IMG/VR virus record: IMGVR_UViG_3300037067_004081
Reading direction: 5' to 3' (one strand)
Origin: an uncultured virus (IMG/VR IMGVR_UViG_3300037067_004081)
Taxonomy: Duplodnaviria > Heunggongvirae > Uroviricota > Caudoviricetes
Length of the DNA stretch: 20,000 nucleotides
Of this stretch, positions 8,934-19,274 are shown piece by piece. Every line of letters begins with the position of its first letter. Within the stretch, counting starts at the first letter, position 1. A program made the translations under genes and the position numbers. The notes under the pieces were generated by a model. It ran no database searches and was not told where the DNA came from. It was given only the letters and a program-made list of their open reading frames with translations.

Positions 8934-9622
8934 ATATGAATTGGCAGAATATACCGAACAGGAAACCACCTGAAAGACCAGAGCCGGACGAATTGATTGG
9001 GATCATATCCAAAAGAGTATTGGAGCACGAATTCCAAAATGCAGTGGCAATCTTCAGGGAATTATATCAAAAGTATTACAAGTTCAGTCTCAACGGTTAC
9101 AAGAATCCATCAACAATAACAGGCATCAGAAAGATCATAGCACTTTGCAAATATAAAGGCTGGGATCTGCGTGACTTCATCGAGTGTAATGTCATTTGGT
9201 ATCTTGAGAACAGCAGATTCAAGCCTGTCCCAGTTGCACTCTGTGGTCAGAAGGCAGAGATGAAATATGAGATGTATTTGCAGGACAACTATGATGGCAG
9301 CGTTGAAAGAAGGCTTGAAGAGCTTGAGCAGATAAGAGGCACAAGTGAAAGAGTCACCCGCATGGAAGCTGCTGGGATGCTGCCGGAACAGGTGAAACAA
9401 ATGGCAGAGCAGTATGCTAAAGAAAAAGCGGATGCAGCCATCATTGATGTGGATAAAATAAAGGAGACCATGCCGGCATTCATCGCAGATAAGATGGATG
9501 TTGAAGCCTTAGAGCAGAGAGGCAGGCAAAAGGTGTTCTTTGATGCAAAAGATGAGTACATGAGGAATTGGAATTTCGCGCATGAGCAACAGGAAGCTGA
9601 ACTTCATATATGCACTTATTGA
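8930..9622 (+). CDS. Hypothetical replication-module protein
   Basis: 230-aa ORF coupled to the upstream gene and lying upstream of the helicase and primase. No recognised motif. Confidence 0.7.
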   Translation: MNMNWQNIPNRKPPERPEPDELIGIISKRVLEHEFQNAVAIFRELYQKYYKFSLNGYKNPSTITGIRKIIALCKYKGWDLRDFIECNVIWYLENSRFKPVPVALCGQKAEMKYEMYLQDNYDGSVERRLEELEQIRGTSERVTRMEAAGMLPEQVKQMAEQYAKEKADAAIIDVDKIKETMPAFIADKMDVEALEQRGRQKVFFDAKDEYMRNWNFAHEQQEAELHICTY

Positions 9623-10229
9623 TCCAAGAGACAAGAGAATCAGATATATAGGAATTGCAGTTGATGTCAAGATAAGATACAGGGCACATCTGCGAGATAA
9701 TTATCAAAGTCCAAAAGCAAATTGGATAAAATCTCTTGCCAGTAAAGGATTGAAGCCCAAACTAAAAATTCTTGAAGTCACTATTGATAGAAATAGAGAG
9801 TTGTTCTGGATAAAGAAGTATGGAAGGGACAACTTACTTAATCTAACTGATGGTGGTGAAGGAACTCTTGGCAGAATTGTGTCCAAAGAAACAAGAGATA
9901 GAGTTAGCAGTAAGCTTGCTGGTGTGAAGCCTTGCAAGGAGGCATTCGAGAATTCCCCAGTATTGAAACCAGGTTGGTACCATACCAAGGAAGCAAGAAG
10001 AAGGATTGTGGTGGCACAGTTGGGAGGAAAAAGATCAGAAGCTGCAAAGCAAAGAATGAGAGAATCACAACTTGGGAAGGTTCTTTCTGCTGAACACCGG
10101 AAAAAGATAAGTGTTGCTGTAAATGGAAACAAAAGTCACCTTGGCTTAACATTTTCTGATGAATCAAAAAGGAAGATGAGTTTGGCCAGATCCAATTGGT
10201 GGAGGGCCAAGCGTGAGCAATCAAATTAA
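9582..10229 (+). CDS. Free-standing GIY-YIG homing endonuclease with NUMOD3-like repeats
   Basis: FIYALIDPR...RYIG, R..H, E.FWI and LLN.TDGGEG nuclease motifs. C-terminal repeats such as HTKEARRRI, SEAAKQRM, SAEHRKKIS and SDESKRKMS. Confidence 0.85.
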   Translation: MSNRKLNFIYALIDPRDKRIRYIGIAVDVKIRYRAHLRDNYQSPKANWIKSLASKGLKPKLKILEVTIDRNRELFWIKKYGRDNLLNLTDGGEGTLGRIVSKETRDRVSSKLAGVKPCKEAFENSPVLKPGWYHTKEARRRIVVAQLGGKRSEAAKQRMRESQLGKVLSAEHRKKISVAVNGNKSHLGLTFSDESKRKMSLARSNWWRAKREQSN

Positions 10230-11580: not shown

Positions 11581-12458
11581 ACCAAGGTGAAAGAATCATC
11601 ACAGGACAACCGAATGCAAGGCCTGGAGGCACCCCAGGAGAGTGGACAATTTTCTGCCCATGGCACGAGATGGGTGCAAGGCATATGCCTTCCTGCTGTG
11701 TCAATCTGGTGAAGGGTGTATTCATCTGCCACGGTTGTGGGATTGCAGGAAGGCTGGCCAAGCTGGTTGCCAAGCTGGAGAATGTTTCATACAAAGAGGC
11801 AATCGGTTTGGTTGGTGGTGAAGCAAGAGGAAGATTCAAGGATCAGGATGCAGCTGTGCAGTTGCCTGAAGAGTATCAGAACTTGCCTGCTGTTGGAAGG
11901 TTTGCATCAGAGGCGATTACCTATTTGCAGAACAGGAGAATCACCCAGAAACAAATTGAGCACCACCAGATTGGATTCTGCGGCACAGGCAAATATGCAA
12001 GAAGGATAATTGTGCCAATCACCCATGAAGGAAAGTTGATCAATTTCATCGCAAGGGATTGGACAGGAAGATCAGAACGCAAAGTGCTGAATCCTCCAGG
12101 CAGTCAGGCAATCCGATCAGTGTTTGGGTGGGATAGAGCCTGTAATTATGCAAGGTCAGTGGTGATCACAGAAGGCTGGGCTGATGCGCTTGCAGTAGAA
12201 AGAGTGTTGCAGAAAGACAGATACTTTTCAGATTGGGCTGCACTGGCGATTGGTGGCAAAGAGATAAGTGATGACAAGCTTCTGATGTTTACCAAGTTTG
12301 AAAAGTTTGTTGTCATGTTGGACTCTGCAGCCAGAGCAGATGCTGTGTTGGTTGGCAGGAAGCTGACAAGCTTCACAGACAAAATCAGAATTGTTAAGGT
12401 GTCTGGCAAAGATCCTGCTGAGACACCAGAGGAAGAAATCATGAGGTTGATACGATGA
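11577..12458 (+). CDS. DNA primase (CHC2 zinc finger + TOPRIM)
   Basis: CPWH...CHGCG zinc finger, YLQNRRI, RIIVPI, ARD, ITEGWADAL, and KDP near the C-terminus. Adjacent to the helicase. Confidence 0.85.
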   Translation: MNQGERIITGQPNARPGGTPGEWTIFCPWHEMGARHMPSCCVNLVKGVFICHGCGIAGRLAKLVAKLENVSYKEAIGLVGGEARGRFKDQDAAVQLPEEYQNLPAVGRFASEAITYLQNRRITQKQIEHHQIGFCGTGKYARRIIVPITHEGKLINFIARDWTGRSERKVLNPPGSQAIRSVFGWDRACNYARSVVITEGWADALAVERVLQKDRYFSDWAALAIGGKEISDDKLLMFTKFEKFVVMLDSAARADAVLVGRKLTSFTDKIRIVKVSGKDPAETPEEEIMRLIR

Positions 12459-12664
12459 AAAGACGATGGGTTGATCTGAATGACATTCTGACAAGAAAAG
12501 AAGCTGCTGATTTATATGGATGCAGCCTTCAAACGCTGCAATATCACATCGGAACAGGCAGACTGCAGCCTGTTTTCTCGAAAGGCAGTGTGAAATTGTT
12601 CCTCAGAAGCCAGATTTTGGCGCTGAAAGCTCTTAAATTACACGCTGGAAGGCCAAAATTATAA
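12455..12664 (+). CDS. Small helix-turn-helix DNA-binding protein (excisionase/MerR-like HTH)
   Basis: 69 aa with the pattern LTRKEAADLYGCS.QTL..HI.TGRL.P. ATGA-coupled to the primase. Confidence 0.75.
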   Translation: MKRRWVDLNDILTRKEAADLYGCSLQTLQYHIGTGRLQPVFSKGSVKLFLRSQILALKALKLHAGRPKL

Positions 12665-12770
12665 GAAAAAATCACTATTTACCAAAAATAATTTCTCCCA
12701 TAAATGCTGCAATTACATAAACTTGCCTGTCTGACCAAAAATAAATCGACAAAAGTTGAAAATAATCCTA

Positions 12771-12798
12771 TTGCTTTTGACGGGATTTCCGATAAGAT
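12771..12798 (+). promoter_or_regulatory. Candidate sigma70-type promoter for the accessory operon
   Basis: TTGCTT (12771-76), 16-nt spacer, TAAGAT (12793-98), with an overlapping TTGACG (12777-82) and an A-rich UP-like sequence upstream. Confidence 0.4.
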
Positions 12799-12809
12799 AG
12801 TCATAACTT

Positions 12810-13230
12810 GGAGGTGAGACGGAAACAAAAGCAAGACGGTGATGGTGGTTCTAAAGTACACCCACCGAAATAAAGAAAGCCAGCGGGAAAGTAAGAATCG
12901 GGTGTCCAGGCTTAGGGTCAGACGCCAAGAGAAGAAATCCCAAAAGCAGCGGAAAAATCCAGATAGAAGGCTCTGGAGATAAACAAAAGCCTAGACCAAA
13001 GCGGAAAATCGCTTAGGCGCAACTACTGAAGCCTGATGAGGGATAAGGTGGACCTAGACCAAGAATCACGGTGTAGGCAAGGCTGCTGACAAGCCTGGAG
13101 AAACAGACGATAGAATTGCGAAAGCACGCCAGTCAAGTAGGGTGGCTTGGCTCAAGGGTGTGATCCTTGAAAAACGGGTTGGATGCTGCGCAACTTCTTC
13201 TAAGGAGATGAAAAGAGAGATAATGAAAAT
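12810..13230 (+). ncRNA. Candidate large structured non-coding RNA or leader, family unassigned
   Basis: No credible ORF. A long-range helix TCCAGGCTT(AGG)GTCAG (12905-21)/CTGACAAGCCTGGA (13086-99) encloses several hairpins. Further hairpins downstream have G-U pairs and a GAAA tetraloop. Confidence 0.55.
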
Positions 13231-13303
13231 GCAGAGTGGCGGTGAAGCGAATAACTTCACCGTTAATGCGCTGGGCAAGGTGCCCATTCAGTCACAAGCC
13301 TGA
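13231..13303 (+). ncRNA. Twister ribozyme (circularly permuted, P5-open), copy 1
   Basis: GCA-GA-GTG-G; P1 CGGTGAAG/CTTCACCG; TTAA-TGC-GC; P3 TGGGCA/TGCCCA; P4 TCAG[TCACAAGC]CTGA. Predicted cut 13264/13265. Confidence 0.85.
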
Positions 13304-13318
13304 TAAGGAGAGAATGAA

Positions 13319-13573
13319 ATGAATCTATCATCAAAGACACCACCTGCAGTAAGAATGATGACAACTGAAGACTTCCTGAGTTTGGCAGAGCGGATTGGCA
13401 GAATATATCGTGCACCTGGTAGTGGTGCTGGTGAAGGTTACTTGAGAGCAAAAAGGGAAATCAAATTGCAGCTTGACCAAGCAGGAATGACCCCAGAAGA
13501 GTTTGACCGAACAATGAAGCCTATTGCAAAACGGCGCAGAGTGATTAAGCTTTCCAGAATGCAATTTGAATAA
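13319..13573 (+). CDS. Hypothetical protein (84 aa)
   Basis: AAGGAG RBS 8 nt upstream, directly after twister copy 1. Confidence 0.65.
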   Translation: MNLSSKTPPAVRMMTTEDFLSLAERIGRIYRAPGSGAGEGYLRAKREIKLQLDQAGMTPEEFDRTMKPIAKRRRVIKLSRMQFE

Positions 13574-13587
13574 GAAAGGATTTGGCC

Positions 13588-13686
13588 ATGGATATCGGAT
13601 CAATTATAATTTCGGTTGGTGCAGTCTTATTCCTTCTCAAGCTGTTGGGATCAATAAGAAGAGCAAAAAGCATTTCGAGCAGATAG
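13588..13686 (+). CDS. Small single-pass membrane peptide (32 aa; not in ORF track)
   Basis: AAAGGA RBS; MDIGSIIISVGAVLFLLKLLGSIRRAKSISSR*. Its TAG shares its G with the first base of twister copy 2, as in other cassettes. Confidence 0.65.
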   Translation: MDIGSIIISVGAVLFLLKLLGSIRRAKSISSR

Positions 13687-13750
13687 CAGAGTGGGGTTGC
13701 TTAGGCAACCTTAATGCGCTGGGCATATTGCCCAACAGTCACAAGCCTGT
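13686..13750 (+). ncRNA. Twister ribozyme, copy 2
   Basis: Same core; P1 GGTTGC/GCAACC, P3 TGGGCA/TGCCCA, P4 ACAG/CTGT. Predicted cut 13712/13713. Confidence 0.85.
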
Positions 13751-13775
13751 TAAACTTTTCCAAGGAGAAAATCAC

Positions 13776-14477
13776 ATGACTAGCAAGAACAGTTCTTTGA
13801 TAGTAACCAGCAACAAATTGACGGCACAGCAGGAAGCGGACATATTGAGCAAGGGAATTGTTGACCTGGATGACTTCATGGACAACTTCCAATATCTGTG
13901 TTTCGTGCTTGATGGCTCTGGTAGCACCCACTGCCCACTTGAAGGTGATAATCCTCAGCGGATGACAGTGGTTGACCTTGAGAAGAAAGTCATCCAGCGC
14001 TATGCTGACAAAAAGATCGGCGAAAAAGCGCTGTCCATGAAGATCGGGATTGTTGAGTTTGACAACAAGACTCGAATTCACCTGACAGGTTCATCCGATC
14101 TGCAGGAAATCAAAGCAGCCATCGGCAACATCGGCAGCATGGGTGGAGGCACGACAATCAGCAAGGGAATTCGCGGTGGCTTGTCGATGCTGAAGAAGAG
14201 CAAAGACTTCACGCCCAGAATCATCCTCACTTCTGATGGTGAGTTTTATGACATCCATGCCGCTCTTGAGGCTGCAGAGGATGCAAAGAAAAAAGGCATC
14301 GTCATCGACACAATTTATTGTGGAGCTGGCAGAGCATCTGACAAGAATGCCTCTGAACTTCTGAAGCGGATATCTGAAGCCACTGGTGGCGTCCATGAGG
14401 AAATCACTGGTGCCCATGACTTTGAAGAGAAGTTCCTGAAGGTTGCAGAGCGCAAGATGCTTTCTGCCACCTTATAA
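13776..14477 (+). CDS. von Willebrand factor A (vWA) domain protein
   Basis: MIDAS motif FVLDGSGS (DxSxS), GGGTT and IILTSDG. Start at ATG 13776 after AAGGAG; 233 aa. Confidence 0.85.
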   Translation: MTSKNSSLIVTSNKLTAQQEADILSKGIVDLDDFMDNFQYLCFVLDGSGSTHCPLEGDNPQRMTVVDLEKKVIQRYADKKIGEKALSMKIGIVEFDNKTRIHLTGSSDLQEIKAAIGNIGSMGGGTTISKGIRGGLSMLKKSKDFTPRIILTSDGEFYDIHAALEAAEDAKKKGIVIDTIYCGAGRASDKNASELLKRISEATGGVHEEITGAHDFEEKFLKVAERKMLSATL

Positions 14478-14479
14478 TA

Positions 14480-14550
14480 GCAGAGTGGACTTGGGAGCAA
14501 TCCCAAGTTTAATGCGCTGGGCAAGGTGCCCATTCAGTCACAAGCCTGAA
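14480..14550 (+). ncRNA. Twister ribozyme, copy 3
   Basis: P1 ACTTGGGA-GCAA-TCCCAAGT (GNRA loop), P3 TGGGCA/TGCCCA, P4 TTCAG/CTGAA. Predicted cut 14510/14511. Confidence 0.85.
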
Positions 14551-14563
14551 AAGGAGAAATGTT

Positions 14564-15238
14564 ATGGCATCAACCAGGAAAGCTTTGGAGTTGATTTATG
14601 GAATGTTCGCAAGGGCAATCGCTGATCTTGATCAGCGCAACAGCCTTCTTGTTCAGGCTGTGGGAATCATGGATCCAATCTGTGGTAGTTTAAGGCTATT
14701 GCAACAGCGTGATCCCAATGTCAAATACCTTGCTGATGATGCAGAGAAGCTTTGGAACAAGGCAAAGCTCTGCAGGCAACGGGCAATGGGCACCAACTTC
14801 CCTGAAGAGAAGGAAGTGAGCCTGAGAATGGCCTTGAAGTTCATGGGAAGATTTGCAGCAAAACTGAATCCGCCCAGTATTGATGATGCAATCCTTATGC
14901 TGGAAAGCAATCAGAAGGGTGGCAAGGCTTCAAAGGCACCAAAAGCTCCAAAGGCAACCGGGCAGCCAAAAGCGCCAACAGTTCCTGGCAACTATCCTTC
15001 AAACATTCCTCCATTGGGCCCAGACGGAATTCCTGCATGGAAACCTGGGACATCAGCCAGGATCTGCGCTGATATCCTGATGGCGCAGGATTCAATAAGC
15101 AAGATGGATGCAAGGAAAGCAGCACACGCTGCTGGCTTCAAATCAGATAATGTTGATGCCCGTATCAATATGGTTGCTGGCTTTCTGGTAAAGTTTGGGA
15201 AGCTGAAGAGAACCAAGGTTGGTTGGGTTAAAGCATAG
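14564..15238 (+). CDS. Hypothetical protein with a DUF2786-like segment, Pro/Lys linker and possible C-terminal winged helix
   Basis: AAGGAG RBS. KAKLCRQRAMGTNFPEEKEVSLRMALKFM loosely resembles DUF2786; linker KAPKAPKA; basic C-terminus. Confidence 0.7.
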   Translation: MASTRKALELIYGMFARAIADLDQRNSLLVQAVGIMDPICGSLRLLQQRDPNVKYLADDAEKLWNKAKLCRQRAMGTNFPEEKEVSLRMALKFMGRFAAKLNPPSIDDAILMLESNQKGGKASKAPKAPKATGQPKAPTVPGNYPSNIPPLGPDGIPAWKPGTSARICADILMAQDSISKMDARKAAHAAGFKSDNVDARINMVAGFLVKFGKLKRTKVGWVKA

Positions 15239-15308
15239 CAGAGTGGGGCTGGAGTCATCCAGCCTTAATGCGCTGGCGGGATTGTCCTGCCAATAGTCAC
15301 AAGCCTAT
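15238..15308 (+). ncRNA. Twister ribozyme, copy 4
   Basis: P1 GGCTGGA/TCCAGCC, P3 TGGCGGGA/TCCTGCCA (one G-U), P4 ATAG/CTAT. Predicted cut 15266/15267. Confidence 0.85.
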
Positions 15309-15324
15309 AACAAGGAGAAATCAA

Positions 15325-15684
15325 ATGGGAACAGTAATAGTTGAATGCGATGCTTGCCACACCAAGAACAGAATGCAAGAAGACAGAATCGGAACAGCAC
15401 GCTGCGGCAAATGCGGCAATCCTCTTATGGATGCATATACAGATCAATTTGGTGGCAGTGAAGAGGATGAAGAGTTGGAATTTGATGATGACGATGATGC
15501 TGACAGTGAAGATGATGAAGATGACCCAAGATGCTTTGGGTGTGGTCATGATTGGAAGAGTAATTGGTCAGAAGATGATCTGGCCACAGTAAAAATAAAG
15601 GGTGTTTCAAAGGGCATTAAAACTGTTCAAGTCTGCCCAGAGTGCATGGATGAAGTCAAGCAGCAATATAAGGTAGTCGAATAG
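15325..15684 (+). CDS. Double zinc-ribbon protein with acidic linker (119 aa)
   Basis: AAGGAG RBS before ATG 15325. CDAC..KNR...CGKC resembles the TrxC N-terminal Zn ribbon; then a D/E tract and CFGC...CPEC. Confidence 0.75.
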   Translation: MGTVIVECDACHTKNRMQEDRIGTARCGKCGNPLMDAYTDQFGGSEEDEELEFDDDDDADSEDDEDDPRCFGCGHDWKSNWSEDDLATVKIKGVSKGIKTVQVCPECMDEVKQQYKVVE

Positions 15685-15752
15685 CAGAGTGGGCCCAGGA
15701 ACACAACCTGGGCTTAATGCGCTGGCAAATGTGCCACTAGTCACAAGCCTAG
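15684..15752 (+). ncRNA. Twister ribozyme, copy 5
   Basis: P1 GCCCAGG/CCTGGGC, P3 TGGCA/TGCCA, P4 CTAG/CTAG. Predicted cut 15715/15716. Confidence 0.85.
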
Positions 15753-15768
15753 AAAAAGGAGAAACCAA

Positions 15769-16200
15769 ATGGGAACTTGTTCAGCTATAATAAATGATAT
15801 GAGCGCAGCAGGTGGATGTAGCCTTGATTTTGACTCTTCTGAATATGAAAGAGAATTGACAGAGGAAGAGTTTGCCCAGCAGGAAAAGAGGCGCAGGCGC
15901 AACCGACAAATACAGAGAAGCCACAATCGGATATACAAGAGCAAGAGGAAAGCTTTGATTGCTGCCATGGGCGGTGAGTGTGTTGAGTGTGGAAAGAAAA
16001 GAAAGCTTGAATTCCATCATCCTGATGGACGTGATTGGAATGTCAGATCAATGAACCAATGGCGCAGAATAAAGAAGTATGAAGAGGAATGGGCTGCAGG
16101 CAAAATTGAGCTGCTGTGCAGATCCTGTAATGGCGGCATCAATCCGAAAAAGGAAAGGGAAGAGGAAGAAGCATATGATGAATATGCAGACTGTGAGTGA
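15769..16200 (+). CDS. HNH endonuclease-like protein
   Basis: CVECG....LEFHH...LLCRSCN zinc-finger HNH pattern; AAGGAG RBS. Confidence 0.75.
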   Translation: MGTCSAIINDMSAAGGCSLDFDSSEYERELTEEEFAQQEKRRRRNRQIQRSHNRIYKSKRKALIAAMGGECVECGKKRKLEFHHPDGRDWNVRSMNQWRRIKKYEEEWAAGKIELLCRSCNGGINPKKEREEEEAYDEYADCE

Positions 16201-16366
16201 TGTTATCTTTATTGGCACCCAAGAGCAGTCTGGTGGCCTTCCTGGGTTGCCGATGTATAATGACAAGGTGACAGGAACCACCTTTGTTGTTGGGCCAGGA
16301 GAGACCCTGGAGCAAGCAGTTGAAAGGAAGCGGAAACAATTTGAGGAATATGGAAAGGAGTTTTGA
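16175..16366 (+). CDS. Hypothetical protein (about 60 aa; start uncertain)
   Basis: GAGG upstream of ATG 16175. Fills the gap between the HNH gene and the next gene, and its stop abuts the next ATG. Confidence 0.55.
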   Translation: MMNMQTVSDVIFIGTQEQSGGLPGLPMYNDKVTGTTFVVGPGETLEQAVERKRKQFEEYGKEF

Positions 16367-16714
16367 ATGTCAGGGAACAGGAATAGAGAGCAGTCAAACT
16401 CAATAACCCAACTGGTGAAGATTGTTTGCAGGGAAGTTGTTGAGGAAGTTCTGAAGGAAAAGGAAAGAACAGCGAAACAGGAAACAGACCCAACCTGGAC
16501 ACCGGATAAGCTTGGAGCGCTGGGCAATGTCAAGGACAGCGTGCTGCCTGAAAGGGCTGGCCATGATTGGTCACAGGAAGAAGACAATTTTTTGCTTCTG
16601 GAGATGGACAGAGCAATTGAAGCTATTGCCCAGAATCATAAGCGGAAACCTGGTGCCATTCGTGCTAGGGTGGGCAGGAAGGAACTTTTCAGGTGCAGGC
16701 CTGATAGTTTATAA
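16367..16714 (+). CDS. Hypothetical protein with Myb/SANT-like HTH C-terminus
   Basis: AAGGAG RBS; pattern AGHDWSQEED..LL...IEAIA..HKR.PGAIRAR. Confidence 0.7.
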   Translation: MSGNRNREQSNSITQLVKIVCREVVEEVLKEKERTAKQETDPTWTPDKLGALGNVKDSVLPERAGHDWSQEEDNFLLLEMDRAIEAIAQNHKRKPGAIRARVGRKELFRCRPDSL

Positions 16715-16721
16715 TAGAATT

Positions 16722-16790
16722 GCAGAGTGGGCCCAGGAGCACAACCTGGGCTTAATGCGCTGGCCTTTGGCCAATCAGTCACAAGCCTGA
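16722..16790 (+). ncRNA. Twister ribozyme, copy 6
   Basis: P1 GCCCAGG/CCTGGGC, P3 TGGCC/GGCCA, P4 TCAG/CTGA. Predicted cut 16753/16754. Confidence 0.85.
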
Positions 16791-16800
16791 ATCCAGTATA

Positions 16801-16927
16801 GACAAATGCAGCCTAAAGCTGATATGTCAAAATGTCTTCTCCAGGTGACTGAGAAGGCGCATTCAGTTGAGCAGAGGCAGCTGCTGATTCGATAATCAGA
16901 AGGTGGCACAGCGTCCACCACCTCTGC
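16801..16927 (+). ncRNA. Candidate structured RNA downstream of twister 6
   Basis: Hairpin TGTCTTCTC/GAGAAGGCG (16833-59, with G-U pairs). Three-way junction GCAGAGG/CCTCTGC (16871-927) enclosing CTGATT/AATCAG and GGTGG/CCACC. Confidence 0.45.
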
Positions 16928-16956
16928 AGCAATCATATATATAAGGAGATAACAAA

Positions 16957-17532
16957 ATGGCGTCCATAGAAGAAAGAAAAGTGAAGTTGCTTAGGGAATT
17001 GCGATCTGAGCTGATGTGCAGAGGCTTGATGGTTGCATCGGATTTGGGGAGCGTTGATGGCATGGCGATAAAGTTTAACATCATGGTTGATGGCATGGTG
17101 CTGATTGCCCAATGGGTGACAAAGAGTGGCATCCACCGCTATCACTACAATGATCTTGGTGTTGAACCGCTTGCCAACTTCCTAGTCAAGACTCTTGATG
17201 AAGCTTATAGGCCAATAGTCATTGACAGAACAAAGTCTGCAGCTGTGCCTCCACAGGCCAAACCGCAGCAGAAGAAACATCCGATCACTGGCCCAGGATT
17301 TGTGATGGGTGATAAGCCAAAGCAGAAGTTCACAGGTGCTAGGGTGGCAGATCCTGTCACCATTAGTCGTGAGCAATATCAGGAATATATCGAACTGAAA
17401 CAGAGAGCAGAGAATGGGGTGTTCATATCCAACCAAGCTTTTGAAGATATCAAATATGGATACATCCCGCCAAAGCAAAGGGAAGAGTTGAACCGGCAAA
17501 TGAATCATCTGATAAGGAGTATGTCAGTATGA
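16957..17532 (+). CDS. Hypothetical protein (191 aa)
   Basis: TAAGGAG RBS; ATGA overlap with the helicase gene. Confidence 0.75.
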   Translation: MASIEERKVKLLRELRSELMCRGLMVASDLGSVDGMAIKFNIMVDGMVLIAQWVTKSGIHRYHYNDLGVEPLANFLVKTLDEAYRPIVIDRTKSAAVPPQAKPQQKKHPITGPGFVMGDKPKQKFTGARVADPVTISREQYQEYIELKQRAENGVFISNQAFEDIKYGYIPPKQREELNRQMNHLIRSMSV

Positions 17533-19274
17533 AGCTTGAATATAGTCCATCATTAAAGATGTACATCTGCACCTCTTCTGTTGCAGAGAAGGACATCCCA
17601 AAGCAGGCTGGTTTTATTTGGGACAGGATGTGCTCGAAACATTGGGCCACAAAAGATCCTGAGAAGGCATCAAAGCTTGCGCGGTGGGCTTCTCCTGCTT
17701 GTCGGCAGCAGCTTGAAATCGACCTGAAGGCACAACAGGAGATGATTGGGCTGTCATCAGCAACTGATGCAAATATCAATCTTCCTGTGCCAAAGGGAAT
17801 GGAATATTTTGGATATCAAAAGGCAGGAATTCTGTTTTCCTGGCAAAAGAAAAGAACCTATATTGGTGATGAGATGGGGTTGGGAAAAACCATTCAAGCC
17901 ATCGGATTGATCAATGCTGAACCCAGGATCAGAAATGTGTTGGTGGTGACAAAGGCCAGCTTGCGCGTCAACTGGAGGAATGAGTTGCTGAAGTGGTTGG
18001 TTAGAAAGGATCTGTCTGTGGGCATGGCTTATGGGAATACATGGCCAGCAGCAGAGGTTGTTGTCATCAACTATGAAATCCTCACCAGGCACAAGACTGC
18101 TATTGATTTCAGGAAATGGGATTTGCTTATTCTTGATGAGGCTCATCTGGTCAAGAATCCAAAGGCAGAGCGCTCCAAGATGATATATGGCTGGATGCCA
18201 AAGGATATTTTGAAGAGGAGTGAAAGAGTGGCACCTGTTGTTGCAGAATATGCGGTGGCGCTGTCTGGTACTCCAATAGAGAATAGGCCAATCGAGTTGT
18301 ATCCAATTCTCAAATATCTTGATCCAATGAACTGGGGAAACTGGTTCAACTTCATCACCAAATTTTGTGATGGCAAGCAGGAAGGCTTTGGATGGAATGT
18401 CAAAGGTAGCTCCAACAAAGAACTGCTGCAGAAGGAACTGCGCAAAACGGTGATGGTAAGAAGGATGAAAAAGGATGTGCTGAAAGACTTGCCACCAAAG
18501 CGCTATCAGGTGATTGAGATACCTGCTGAAGGCAAATTCATCCAGCAGATTGTCAACAGTGAGCTTGCTGAATGGGAAAGGATTACAAGGACAGCAAGAT
18601 CATTCAAGGGTGATATGGTTGATGCTTTTAAGGCAAATGATCATGAGGCATTCAACAAGCTGGTCGGAAAGCTGCTTGGTGATATAAACATCAAGTTCAA
18701 GGAGTTCTCTAAGCAAAGGAAAGAGACTGGCATCAAAAAGTTGCCATACATAAAGGAGTACATCAAAGAACTTTTGGAGGATGAACCTCATAAGATTTTG
18801 GTATTTGGTTATCACCAGGAAGTCATTGAAGACTTGGAAAGGGCATTCCCGTATTGCGCCAAAGTCTATGGACCAACCCCAGCAGACAAGAGGCAAGGGA
18901 TTGTTGACCGATACAACAACACGCCTGACATGTATCCATTCTTTGGTAGCATCGGCGCTGCTGGAGCTGGGCTGAATATTACTTCAGCTTGGCATGTCAT
19001 ATTTGTGGAAGAGGATATTGTGCCAGGAAGAATGTGGCAGGCAGAGGACAGAGCACACCGGATTGGCCAGACAGAATCTGTACTGGTGACACATCTTGTT
19101 TTGGAAGGAAGTCTTGATGCAAAATTGGCCAATATTGCAGCAGGAAAAGGAAGTATAATTGATGTGATTCTTGGGTCAGATCAGTCTACAATAGATGTTG
19201 ATTTTGGAGACTGGGGAAAAGATTTTGTTGATCCTGCCGCAGCAGGCCAACCGTCCAACACCTGTCCATTTTAG
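17529..19274 (+). CDS. SNF2-family (HARP/SMARCAL1-like) helicase/translocase
   Basis: Motifs YQKAG, GDEMGLGKT, INYE, ILDEAH, LSGTP, GLN and QAEDRAHRIGQ. Confidence 0.9.
   Translation: MKLEYSPSLKMYICTSSVAEKDIPKQAGFIWDRMCSKHWATKDPEKASKLARWASPACRQQLEIDLKAQQEMIGLSSATDANINLPVPKGMEYFGYQKAGILFSWQKKRTYIGDEMGLGKTIQAIGLINAEPRIRNVLVVTKASLRVNWRNELLKWLVRKDLSVGMAYGNTWPAAEVVVINYEILTRHKTAIDFRKWDLLILDEAHLVKNPKAERSKMIYGWMPKDILKRSERVAPVVAEYAVALSGTPIENRPIELYPILKYLDPMNWGNWFNFITKFCDGKQEGFGWNVKGSSNKELLQKELRKTVMVRRMKKDVLKDLPPKRYQVIEIPAEGKFIQQIVNSELAEWERITRTARSFKGDMVDAFKANDHEAFNKLVGKLLGDINIKFKEFSKQRKETGIKKLPYIKEYIKELLEDEPHKILVFGYHQEVIEDLERAFPYCAKVYGPTPADKRQGIVDRYNNTPDMYPFFGSIGAAGAGLNITSAWHVIFVEEDIVPGRMWQAEDRAHRIGQTESVLVTHLVLEGSLDAKLANIAAGKGSIIDVILGSDQSTIDVDFGDWGKDFVDPAAAGQPSNTCPF

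Follow-up and report, generated by a model that had tools for sequence, protein, structure and literature searches.

A phage array of six type-P5 twister ribozymes with a predicted role in processing a polycistronic transcript

Introduction

In prophages, clustered hammerhead ribozymes flank single genes and cut transcripts of about 2 kb in vitro (Perreault 2011, PMC3088659). The same work, with in vitro cleavage of three clusters, proposed in 2011 that ribozyme clusters generate gene-length mRNAs from long phage transcripts (PMC3088659). Processing of polycistronic RNA has been suggested for both hammerhead and twister ribozymes in a 2019 review, which treats the role of genomic self-cleaving ribozymes in bacteria and phages as an open question (PMC6765202). 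A synthetic system, pRAP, in which a stem-loop, a twister, a ribosome-binding site (RBS) and an open reading frame (ORF) follow one another, gives monocistronic mRNAs in E. coli, where every cistron except the last needs the 3′ stem-loop for its expression (PMC9872166). We describe an array of six twister ribozymes in DNA of an uncultured virus of the Caudoviricetes (IMG/VR record IMGVR_UViG_3300037067_004081). The stretch analysed, which we call the window, is 20,000 nucleotides (nt) long, is phage DNA, and carries the six ribozymes within 3.6 kb.

The array resembles the prophage hammerhead clusters in that several ribozymes on the same strand sit in intergenic spacers and flank single genes or short blocks, and the proposed role, cutting a long phage transcript into gene-length mRNAs, is also the same. 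Unlike those clusters, the window array consists of twisters, has six of them in 3.6 kb, and is known from sequence alone; its predicted cut falls inside the ribozyme, so that both products would keep a structured half. With pRAP the array shares the order of stem-loop, twister, RBS and ORF, and in both designs each released cistron has ribozyme-derived structure at its 5′ end and a hairpin at its 3′ end. However, pRAP is engineered, its twister is cut at its 5′ end and its stem-loop was added separately, whereas the design in the window is natural and gets its 3′ hairpin, P1, from the P5 permutation itself. A literature search that did not reach Roth 2014, Weinberg 2015 or Felletti 2017 found no paper on twister arrays between consecutive phage cistrons. 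Both the arrangement and the processing hypothesis are already in print, and the window locus leaves the overall picture unchanged. Our reading of the locus is that six functional type-P5 twisters probably cut a polycistronic phage + strand transcript co-transcriptionally into five internal RNAs, a prediction made from the DNA sequence and its comparison with related loci.

Results

Six copies of a type-P5 twister ribozyme

Three invariant blocks, GCAGAGTGG, TTAATGCGC and AGTCACAAGCCT, are each present in exactly six copies in the whole 20-kb window, all on the + strand, with no occurrence on the − strand. The blocks start at 13231, 13263 and 13290 in copy 1, at 13686, 13711 and 13737 in copy 2, at 14480, 14509 and 14536 in copy 3, at 15238, 15265 and 15295 in copy 4, at 15684, 15714 and 15739 in copy 5, and at 16722, 16752 and 16777 in copy 6. 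The gapped pattern formed by the three blocks gave six matches in the window compared with 0.00 expected from 200 dinucleotide-preserving shuffles.

All six copies match the Rfam family Twister-P5 (RF02684, clan CL00120) with 43.5–46.1 bits, against a gathering score of 37.6. The gathering mode listed five copies; the one at 15237–15308 was lost to speed filters and was recovered in E-value mode. No other Rfam family matched anywhere in the window at E ≤ 1, and RF02684 matched none of 14 control genomes. For comparison, a loose core pattern was run over IMG/VR and found at least 124 stretches, with about 350 estimated in the whole collection. A covariance model, R1, was built from 52 Rfam-confirmed matches and searched against the window and 77 non-overlapping IMG/VR loci, 463 kb in all, where it gave 144 matches in 78 sources, the window included. 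With filters off, R1 returned only the six copies from the whole window, with no seventh or decayed one. The ribozymes are as follows.

13230..13303, + strand: Twister-P5 ribozyme 1; Rfam RF02684 46.1 bits, E 6.3e-07; R1 51.5 bits; P1 −13.2 kcal/mol; P3 hairpin present; predicted cut between 13264 and 13265
13685..13750, + strand: Twister-P5 ribozyme 2; Rfam 44.7 bits; R1 53.8 bits; predicted cut 13712/13713
14479..14549, + strand: Twister-P5 ribozyme 3; Rfam 43.6 bits; R1 53.8 bits; predicted cut 14510/14511
15237..15308, + strand: Twister-P5 ribozyme 4; Rfam 43.5 bits (E-value mode only); R1 48.4 bits; predicted cut 15266/15267; longest P3 of the array, 8 pairs
15683..15752, + strand: Twister-P5 ribozyme 5; Rfam 45.0 bits; R1 51.3 bits; predicted cut 15715/15716
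16721..16790, + strand: Twister-P5 ribozyme 6; Rfam 45.6 bits; R1 52.2 bits; predicted cut 16753/16754; no ribosome-binding site 3′ of it, next gene start at 16957

The array had been proposed earlier from the letters of the sequence and a list of ORFs, with no database search. This sequence-only reading had placed six circularly permuted twisters at these coordinates, and the block count and the shuffle test agree with it. The Rfam covariance-model search that it had named as a check places all six copies above the Twister-P5 gathering score, and recomputing the six cut sites and the lengths of the five pieces between them returned the values it had given. Its account of the variable hairpins, which always pair, and of covariation in P4 was likewise seen as described.

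Fold and conserved core

The type-P5 twister class reportedly goes back to Roth et al. in 2014. Twisters have essential stems P1, P2 and P4, optional stems P0, P3 and P5, two pseudoknots, and a cut between U and a conserved A; about ten strongly conserved nucleotides lie in L1 and L4, and type P5 is a circular permutation (PMC5408937). The elements of the window copies run in the order P2-3′ (GCA), L1 (GAGUG), P1 hairpin, U^AA, P2-5′ (UGC), T2 (GC), P3 hairpin and P4/L4. In the alignments and folds the ends are open at the P5 position, and P1 and P3 are closed by loops. The pseudoknots T1 (GUG/CAC) and T2 (GC/GC) are complementary in all six copies, and P2 (GCA/UGC) is intact. Around this constant core the stems vary. 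P1 has five different sequences, every one of them paired (−10.7 to −14.9 kcal/mol); P3 has four sequences and P4 five (TCAG/CTGA, ACAG/CTGT, TTCAG/CTGAA, ATAG/CTAT and CTAG/CTAG), and all of them pair.

The copies share with RF02684 the stems P1, P2 and P4, the pseudoknots T1 and T2, the conserved nucleotides of L1 and L4, the U-A dinucleotide and termini at P5. They differ from the family in that the optional P3 hairpin, which appears in the RF02684 alignments as an insertion that Rfam does not model, is present in all six, in that P2 has 3 base pairs (bp) and not 4, with T2 directly after UGC, and in that the middle T1 pair is U-A, compared with G-C in the Rfam consensus. Because of the unmodelled P3 insertion and the 3-bp P2, the window scores of 43.5–46.1 bits fall in the lower part of the range of phage twisters, which reach 65.6 bits in the Rfam scan. 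That scan covered 14 of the twister-bearing loci and gave only Twister-P5 matches (57 rows, partly duplicated through overlapping loci). An insertion of at least 10 nt at the P3 position is found in 26 of the 144 phage matches to R1. The window phage has a G+C content of 44%, whereas most other phage twister matches come from G+C-rich contexts.

All 21 columns that are at least 95% conserved in 138 phage twisters from outside the window, a set collected by means of a pattern in which parts of the core are fixed, are matched by every one of the six copies, including the UAA at the cut site and the GAG block. Covariation was evaluated on 131 distinct phage twisters in an alignment fitted to the model. 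Standard pairs fill 91.6% of the cells, compared with 66.9% in shuffled controls and 30–45% with slid partners, and 19 of the 21 pairs, T1 and T2 among them, have changes on both sides (8/8 pairs in P1 and 3/4 in P4). T1 is paired in 99% of cases; its middle pair is UA in 66 sequences, GC in 52, AU in 5 and CG in 4, and the U-A of the window is therefore one of the two common compensated states. This covariation backs the mapping of P2, the cut site, loop L4 and the two pseudoknots that the sequence-only reading had made.

Predicted cleavage and its products

The predicted cut, TT^AATGC, would leave five internal pieces of 448, 798, 756, 449 and 1038 nt. Each ribozyme would fold while it is transcribed, by forming P1, P2, P4, T1 and T2, and would cut U^A within U^AAUGC. 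Cutting would remove a leader of about 0.5 kb and release the five internal RNAs of 448–1038 nt. At its 3′ end an upstream RNA would carry, past the stop codon and a further 8 nt, the stable P1 hairpin and then one U with a 2′,3′-cyclic phosphate, the P1 hairpin lying 1 nt from the predicted 3′ end. A downstream RNA would begin with a 5′-OH, AAUGCGC and the P3 and P4/L4 hairpins, followed by AAGGAG 4–19 nt past the ribozyme and by the start codon. Because of the P5 permutation, every upstream and downstream RNA would have structured ends, and each piece would gain uniform structured 5′ and 3′ ends that are independent of its neighbours.

Twister cleavage produces a 2′,3′-cyclic phosphate and a 5′-OH (PMC5408937, PMC8782182). 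Hairpin-ended 5′ products and structured 3′ products with a 5′-OH would then follow from the P5 topology together with this chemistry. We infer that the RNA is cut in vivo and that this serves to uncouple the cistrons from one another in stability and translation. The effect of cleavage on stability would depend on the decay machinery of the host, and so would the evasion of decay through a 5′-OH that the sequence-only reading suggested; cleavage may also affect the expression of single genes.

Genes of the array and its surroundings

Every gene in the window is on the + strand, as are the ribozymes. The sequence-only reading had depended on transcription in this direction, and all genes and ribosome-binding sites are indeed on the + strand. 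The array lies in a region of phage replication genes, between the primase and HTH genes on one side and the SNF2 helicase and sigma genes on the other. Upstream are genes for a 1516-residue M14-peptidase/LamG protein, tail-like and unknown genes, and genes for a GIY-YIG endonuclease, a DnaB-like helicase, a primase and an HTH protein; 3′ of the array are genes for an SNF2 helicase and a sigma-70-like factor. The leader and the pieces are listed below, with protein lengths in amino acids (aa).

12665..13229, + strand: ORF-poor leader of 565 nt; no convincing + strand ORF; no Rfam match; AT-rich at its start, then purine-rich
13319..13686, + strand: piece 1, an 84-aa ORF (13319–13573) and a 32-aa ORF (13588–13686); no family match; AAGGAG before 13319
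13776..14477, + strand: piece 2, a von Willebrand factor A (VWA) domain protein of 233 aa; Pfam VWA 1.4e-11
14564..15238, + strand: piece 3, a 224-aa protein; no family match
15325..15684, + strand: piece 4, a 119-aa acidic zinc-ribbon-like protein; weak Pfam zinc-ribbon matches, below cut-offs
15769..16714, + strand: piece 5, an HNH endonuclease (15769–16200), a small ORF ending at 16366 and a 115-aa ORF (16367–16714); PHROG HNH 5.8e-09

Stop codons are fitted closely to the ribozymes. In copies 2, 4 and 5 the first base of the ribozyme is the G of the TAG that closes the preceding ORF (ORF ends at 13686, 15238 and 15684). Before copy 3, a TAA at 14475–14477 is followed by an in-frame TAG at 14478–14480 that overlaps the first G of the ribozyme, and copy 6 starts 8 nt past a TAA at 16712–16714. 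At the level of the sequence these stop codons are as the sequence-only reading had described them for copies 2–6, and so is the AAGGAG that follows copies 1–5; copy 6 has no AAGGAG. A tandem in-frame TAG at 16715–16717, before copy 6, is an addition to that description. The five pieces hold eight ORFs, and the boundaries at 13573/13588, at about 16200 and at 16366/16367 are without a ribozyme. The claim of an operon punctuated by ribozymes stands for the six sites between small genes and does not extend to these three boundaries.

The leader at 12665..13229 is presumed to be a promoter plus a 5′ leader that would be cut off by ribozyme 1; the fold of 12800–13229 has a z of −2.49. If the leader is transcribed with the operon, ribozyme 1 would free a separate RNA that ends in a P1 hairpin. 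At its end, positions 13202–13303 hold an AAGGAG, ATG codons at 13208, 13223 and 13229, and a short frame that runs through ribozyme 1 to a TGA in the 3′ strand of P4 (13301–13303). The frame is probably not a gene, and ribozyme 1 seems to lie on what resembles a former gene start.

At the other end of the array, the 166-nt spacer between ribozyme 6 and the next gene (16791–16956) contains hairpin-forming repeats, and its first RBS comes at about 16944. The next best match to R1 after the six copies, a weak one on the − strand of this spacer (11.5 bits, E 0.073), was taken as noise. The window also contains two free-standing genes for endonucleases of homing type, GIY-YIG/NUMOD3 at 9582–10229, just before the DnaB gene, and HNH at 15769–16200.

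Recurrence and conserved layout

Arrays of this kind recur in other phages. Three to nine copies on the same strand were found in 11 of the 77 other IMG/VR loci, and at least three copies in 12 of the 78 sources when the window is counted. Sources with more than one copy always have them on one strand, with a spacing of 100–1470 nt. The copies were distributed over the sources as follows.

1 copy: 56 of 78 sources
2 copies: 10 of 78 sources
3 copies: 1 of 78 sources
4 copies: 2 of 78 sources
5 copies: 2 of 78 sources
6 copies: 4 of 78 sources, the window being one of them
7 copies: 2 of 78 sources
9 copies: 1 of 78 sources

The placement between a stop codon and an RBS is conserved as well. 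For 123 of the 144 matches, an upstream ORF of at least 40 codons has its stop codon ending between −60 and +14 relative to model position 1. In 61 of those 123 the stop ends at −2 to +1, including 21 with a TAG that shares its G with model position 2, as happens in the window; a stop ending at +9, a TGA inside L1, was found for 12 matches. A downstream ORF with a Shine-Dalgarno motif lies within 150 nt of 112 of the 144 matches, at a median gap of 27 nt.

One IMG/VR locus, L081, shares genes with the window array. It has seven twisters, a homolog of the VWA protein (46% protein identity) with a twister on each side, and a homolog of the 224-aa protein (36% identity) directly 3′ of another twister. 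In four of its ORFs the closing TAG overlaps the ribozyme that follows, and the VWA and 224-aa homologs are separated by an extra ribozyme-bounded piece. In the ribozyme slot upstream of VWA, the elements P1, P3, P4, T1 and T2 differ between the window and L081 and all still pair. These changed yet paired elements indicate that the fold has been under selection at this conserved position. For T2, the twisters of L081 have AC/GU and CC/GG at positions where the window has GC/GC. In L081, too, the first twister is preceded by roughly 500 nt that are poor in ORFs; no convincing alignment was found between this stretch and the leader at 12665–13229. Other large arrays are L060, with nine twisters in 6.5 kb, and L061, with seven.

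The nearest record to the window, G001, is 51.9 kb long with an estimated completeness of 65%, and contains the same six ribozymes and no more, at 43.5–46.1 bits. Since the two are identical over 11730–18290, their comparison is uninformative on variation. In the other 36 kb of G001, neither an Rfam match at E ≤ 0.1 nor a tRNA was found. A blastn search of 12400–17600 against cultured phages found no match, and a primase-based search for close relatives in viral contigs gave eight pattern matches, none of which was confirmed. Among proteins of cultured phages, the closest to the SNF2 helicase reach 36% identity (Sphingobium, Thermus and Rhodothermus phages), and at this level of identity a host assignment is not possible.

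The exact three-block pattern was found in two other IMG/VR stretches and in none of the bacterial genome assemblies. The loose pattern gave 119 stretches in bacterial genome assemblies, mostly from Clostridia and also from Dehalococcoidia, Acidobacteriota and others. Among the loci examined, L144, a 36.9-kb contig of an Eubacteriales metagenome-assembled genome, has a six-copy cluster of pattern matches.

Evidence against transcript processing, and other readings

Several points weigh against the reading of the array as a set of functional ribozymes that process the transcript. Cleavage and the RNA ends are predictions, and a search for RNA sequencing runs with positions 13000–17000 listed none. 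A scan for promoters and terminators gave nothing persuasive. Three gene boundaries have no ribozyme, so the array does not as a rule separate single genes. The conservation of the core columns in the 138 phage twisters is partly a matter of ascertainment because of the pattern used for recruitment, and the covariation analysis leans towards structure because its alignment was fitted to the model. The consequence of a 5′-OH also differs between bacteria, in which it may stabilise or destabilise an mRNA; RNase J1 degrades the 5′-OH product of glmS in Bacillus. The 2019 review (PMC6765202) lists work on the destabilisation of mRNA by the glmS ribozyme.

The repeats within the array are mosaics. 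In copies 1 and 3 the 3′ half (13263–13303 against 14509–14549) is identical, with 18/18 in P3/P4, and the P1 stems are unlike (11/23). Copies 5 and 6 have near-identical 5′ halves (15684–15727 against 16722–16765), with P1 in common (20/21), and differ in P3/P4 (11/16). Copies 4 and 5 are 91% identical over 45 nt, from P4 through the RBS into the first codons (15288–15332 against 15732–15776), and the ORFs that follow them both start with Met-Gly-Thr. Switch points at the invariant core suggest duplication or gene conversion whose breakpoints fell within the ribozymes. This pattern, together with the HNH endonuclease inside piece 5, the extra ribozyme-bounded piece in L081 and the variation between clusters in the genes flanked by hammerheads (Perreault 2011, PMC3088659), would fit ribozymes that mainly mark mobile or recombining modules swapped at the invariant core, with cleavage serving chiefly to insulate newly inserted genes. 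A module would then consist of a 3′ half-ribozyme, an RBS, one or more genes and a 5′ half-ribozyme. We think this unlikely: mosaicism is equally expected from ordinary duplication or gene conversion in a functional processing array, and the array has no associated target-site duplications or integrase-type genes. Such recombination would be an evolutionary history that is compatible with processing.

The products of cleavage could also have a further fate. RtcB-type ligases join 5′-OH and 2′,3′-cyclic phosphate ends, which are the ends that the pieces would carry. An RtcB paper is among the references of PMC8782182. All five pieces of the window have cross-compatible halves with invariant P2, T1 and T2 contacts, so that their ends could pair, and an excised piece could close on itself through its twister halves and be joined, by the reverse reaction or by such a host ligase, into a circular or closed-loop mRNA. 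We regard this as very improbable for the window pieces. The uniformity of the halves within the window array is explained by common descent, and a re-formed twister would cut itself again. Across phage arrays, T1 is cross-incompatible in 16 of 66 adjacent pairs, whereas 139 of 144 ribozymes are self-compatible, which argues that selection acts on pairing within each ribozyme. In Perreault 2011, circular or spliced products of hammerhead clusters were sought and none were found (PMC3088659). The wider idea, that pieces may be sealed into circular or closed-loop mRNAs and that the split-ribozyme ends may also permit exchange of pieces between arrays, is in our view quite improbable; such exchange, if true, would fit the mosaic halves. 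Least credible of all is that the repeats have lost self-cleavage and are inactive relics, or plain intergenic hairpins that act as RNase sites, attenuators or protein-binding sites. Their scores in the lower part of the phage range would be in keeping with decay, but those scores were traced to the unmodelled P3 insertion and the 3-bp P2, and the 21 highly conserved core columns are intact in all six copies. Stems that changed with pairing kept, also at the orthologous slots of L081, require selection on the whole fold.

Discussion

Processing of the phage transcript by functional type-P5 twisters is the reading that we prefer for this locus, whose 3.6 kb, with six intact ribozymes and five predicted fragments that differ in size, make it a compact test object. 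The 3′ hairpin that had to be built into pRAP by hand comes here with the P5 permutation itself. The order of stop codon, ribozyme and RBS is a family-wide grammar that may serve beyond the window locus.

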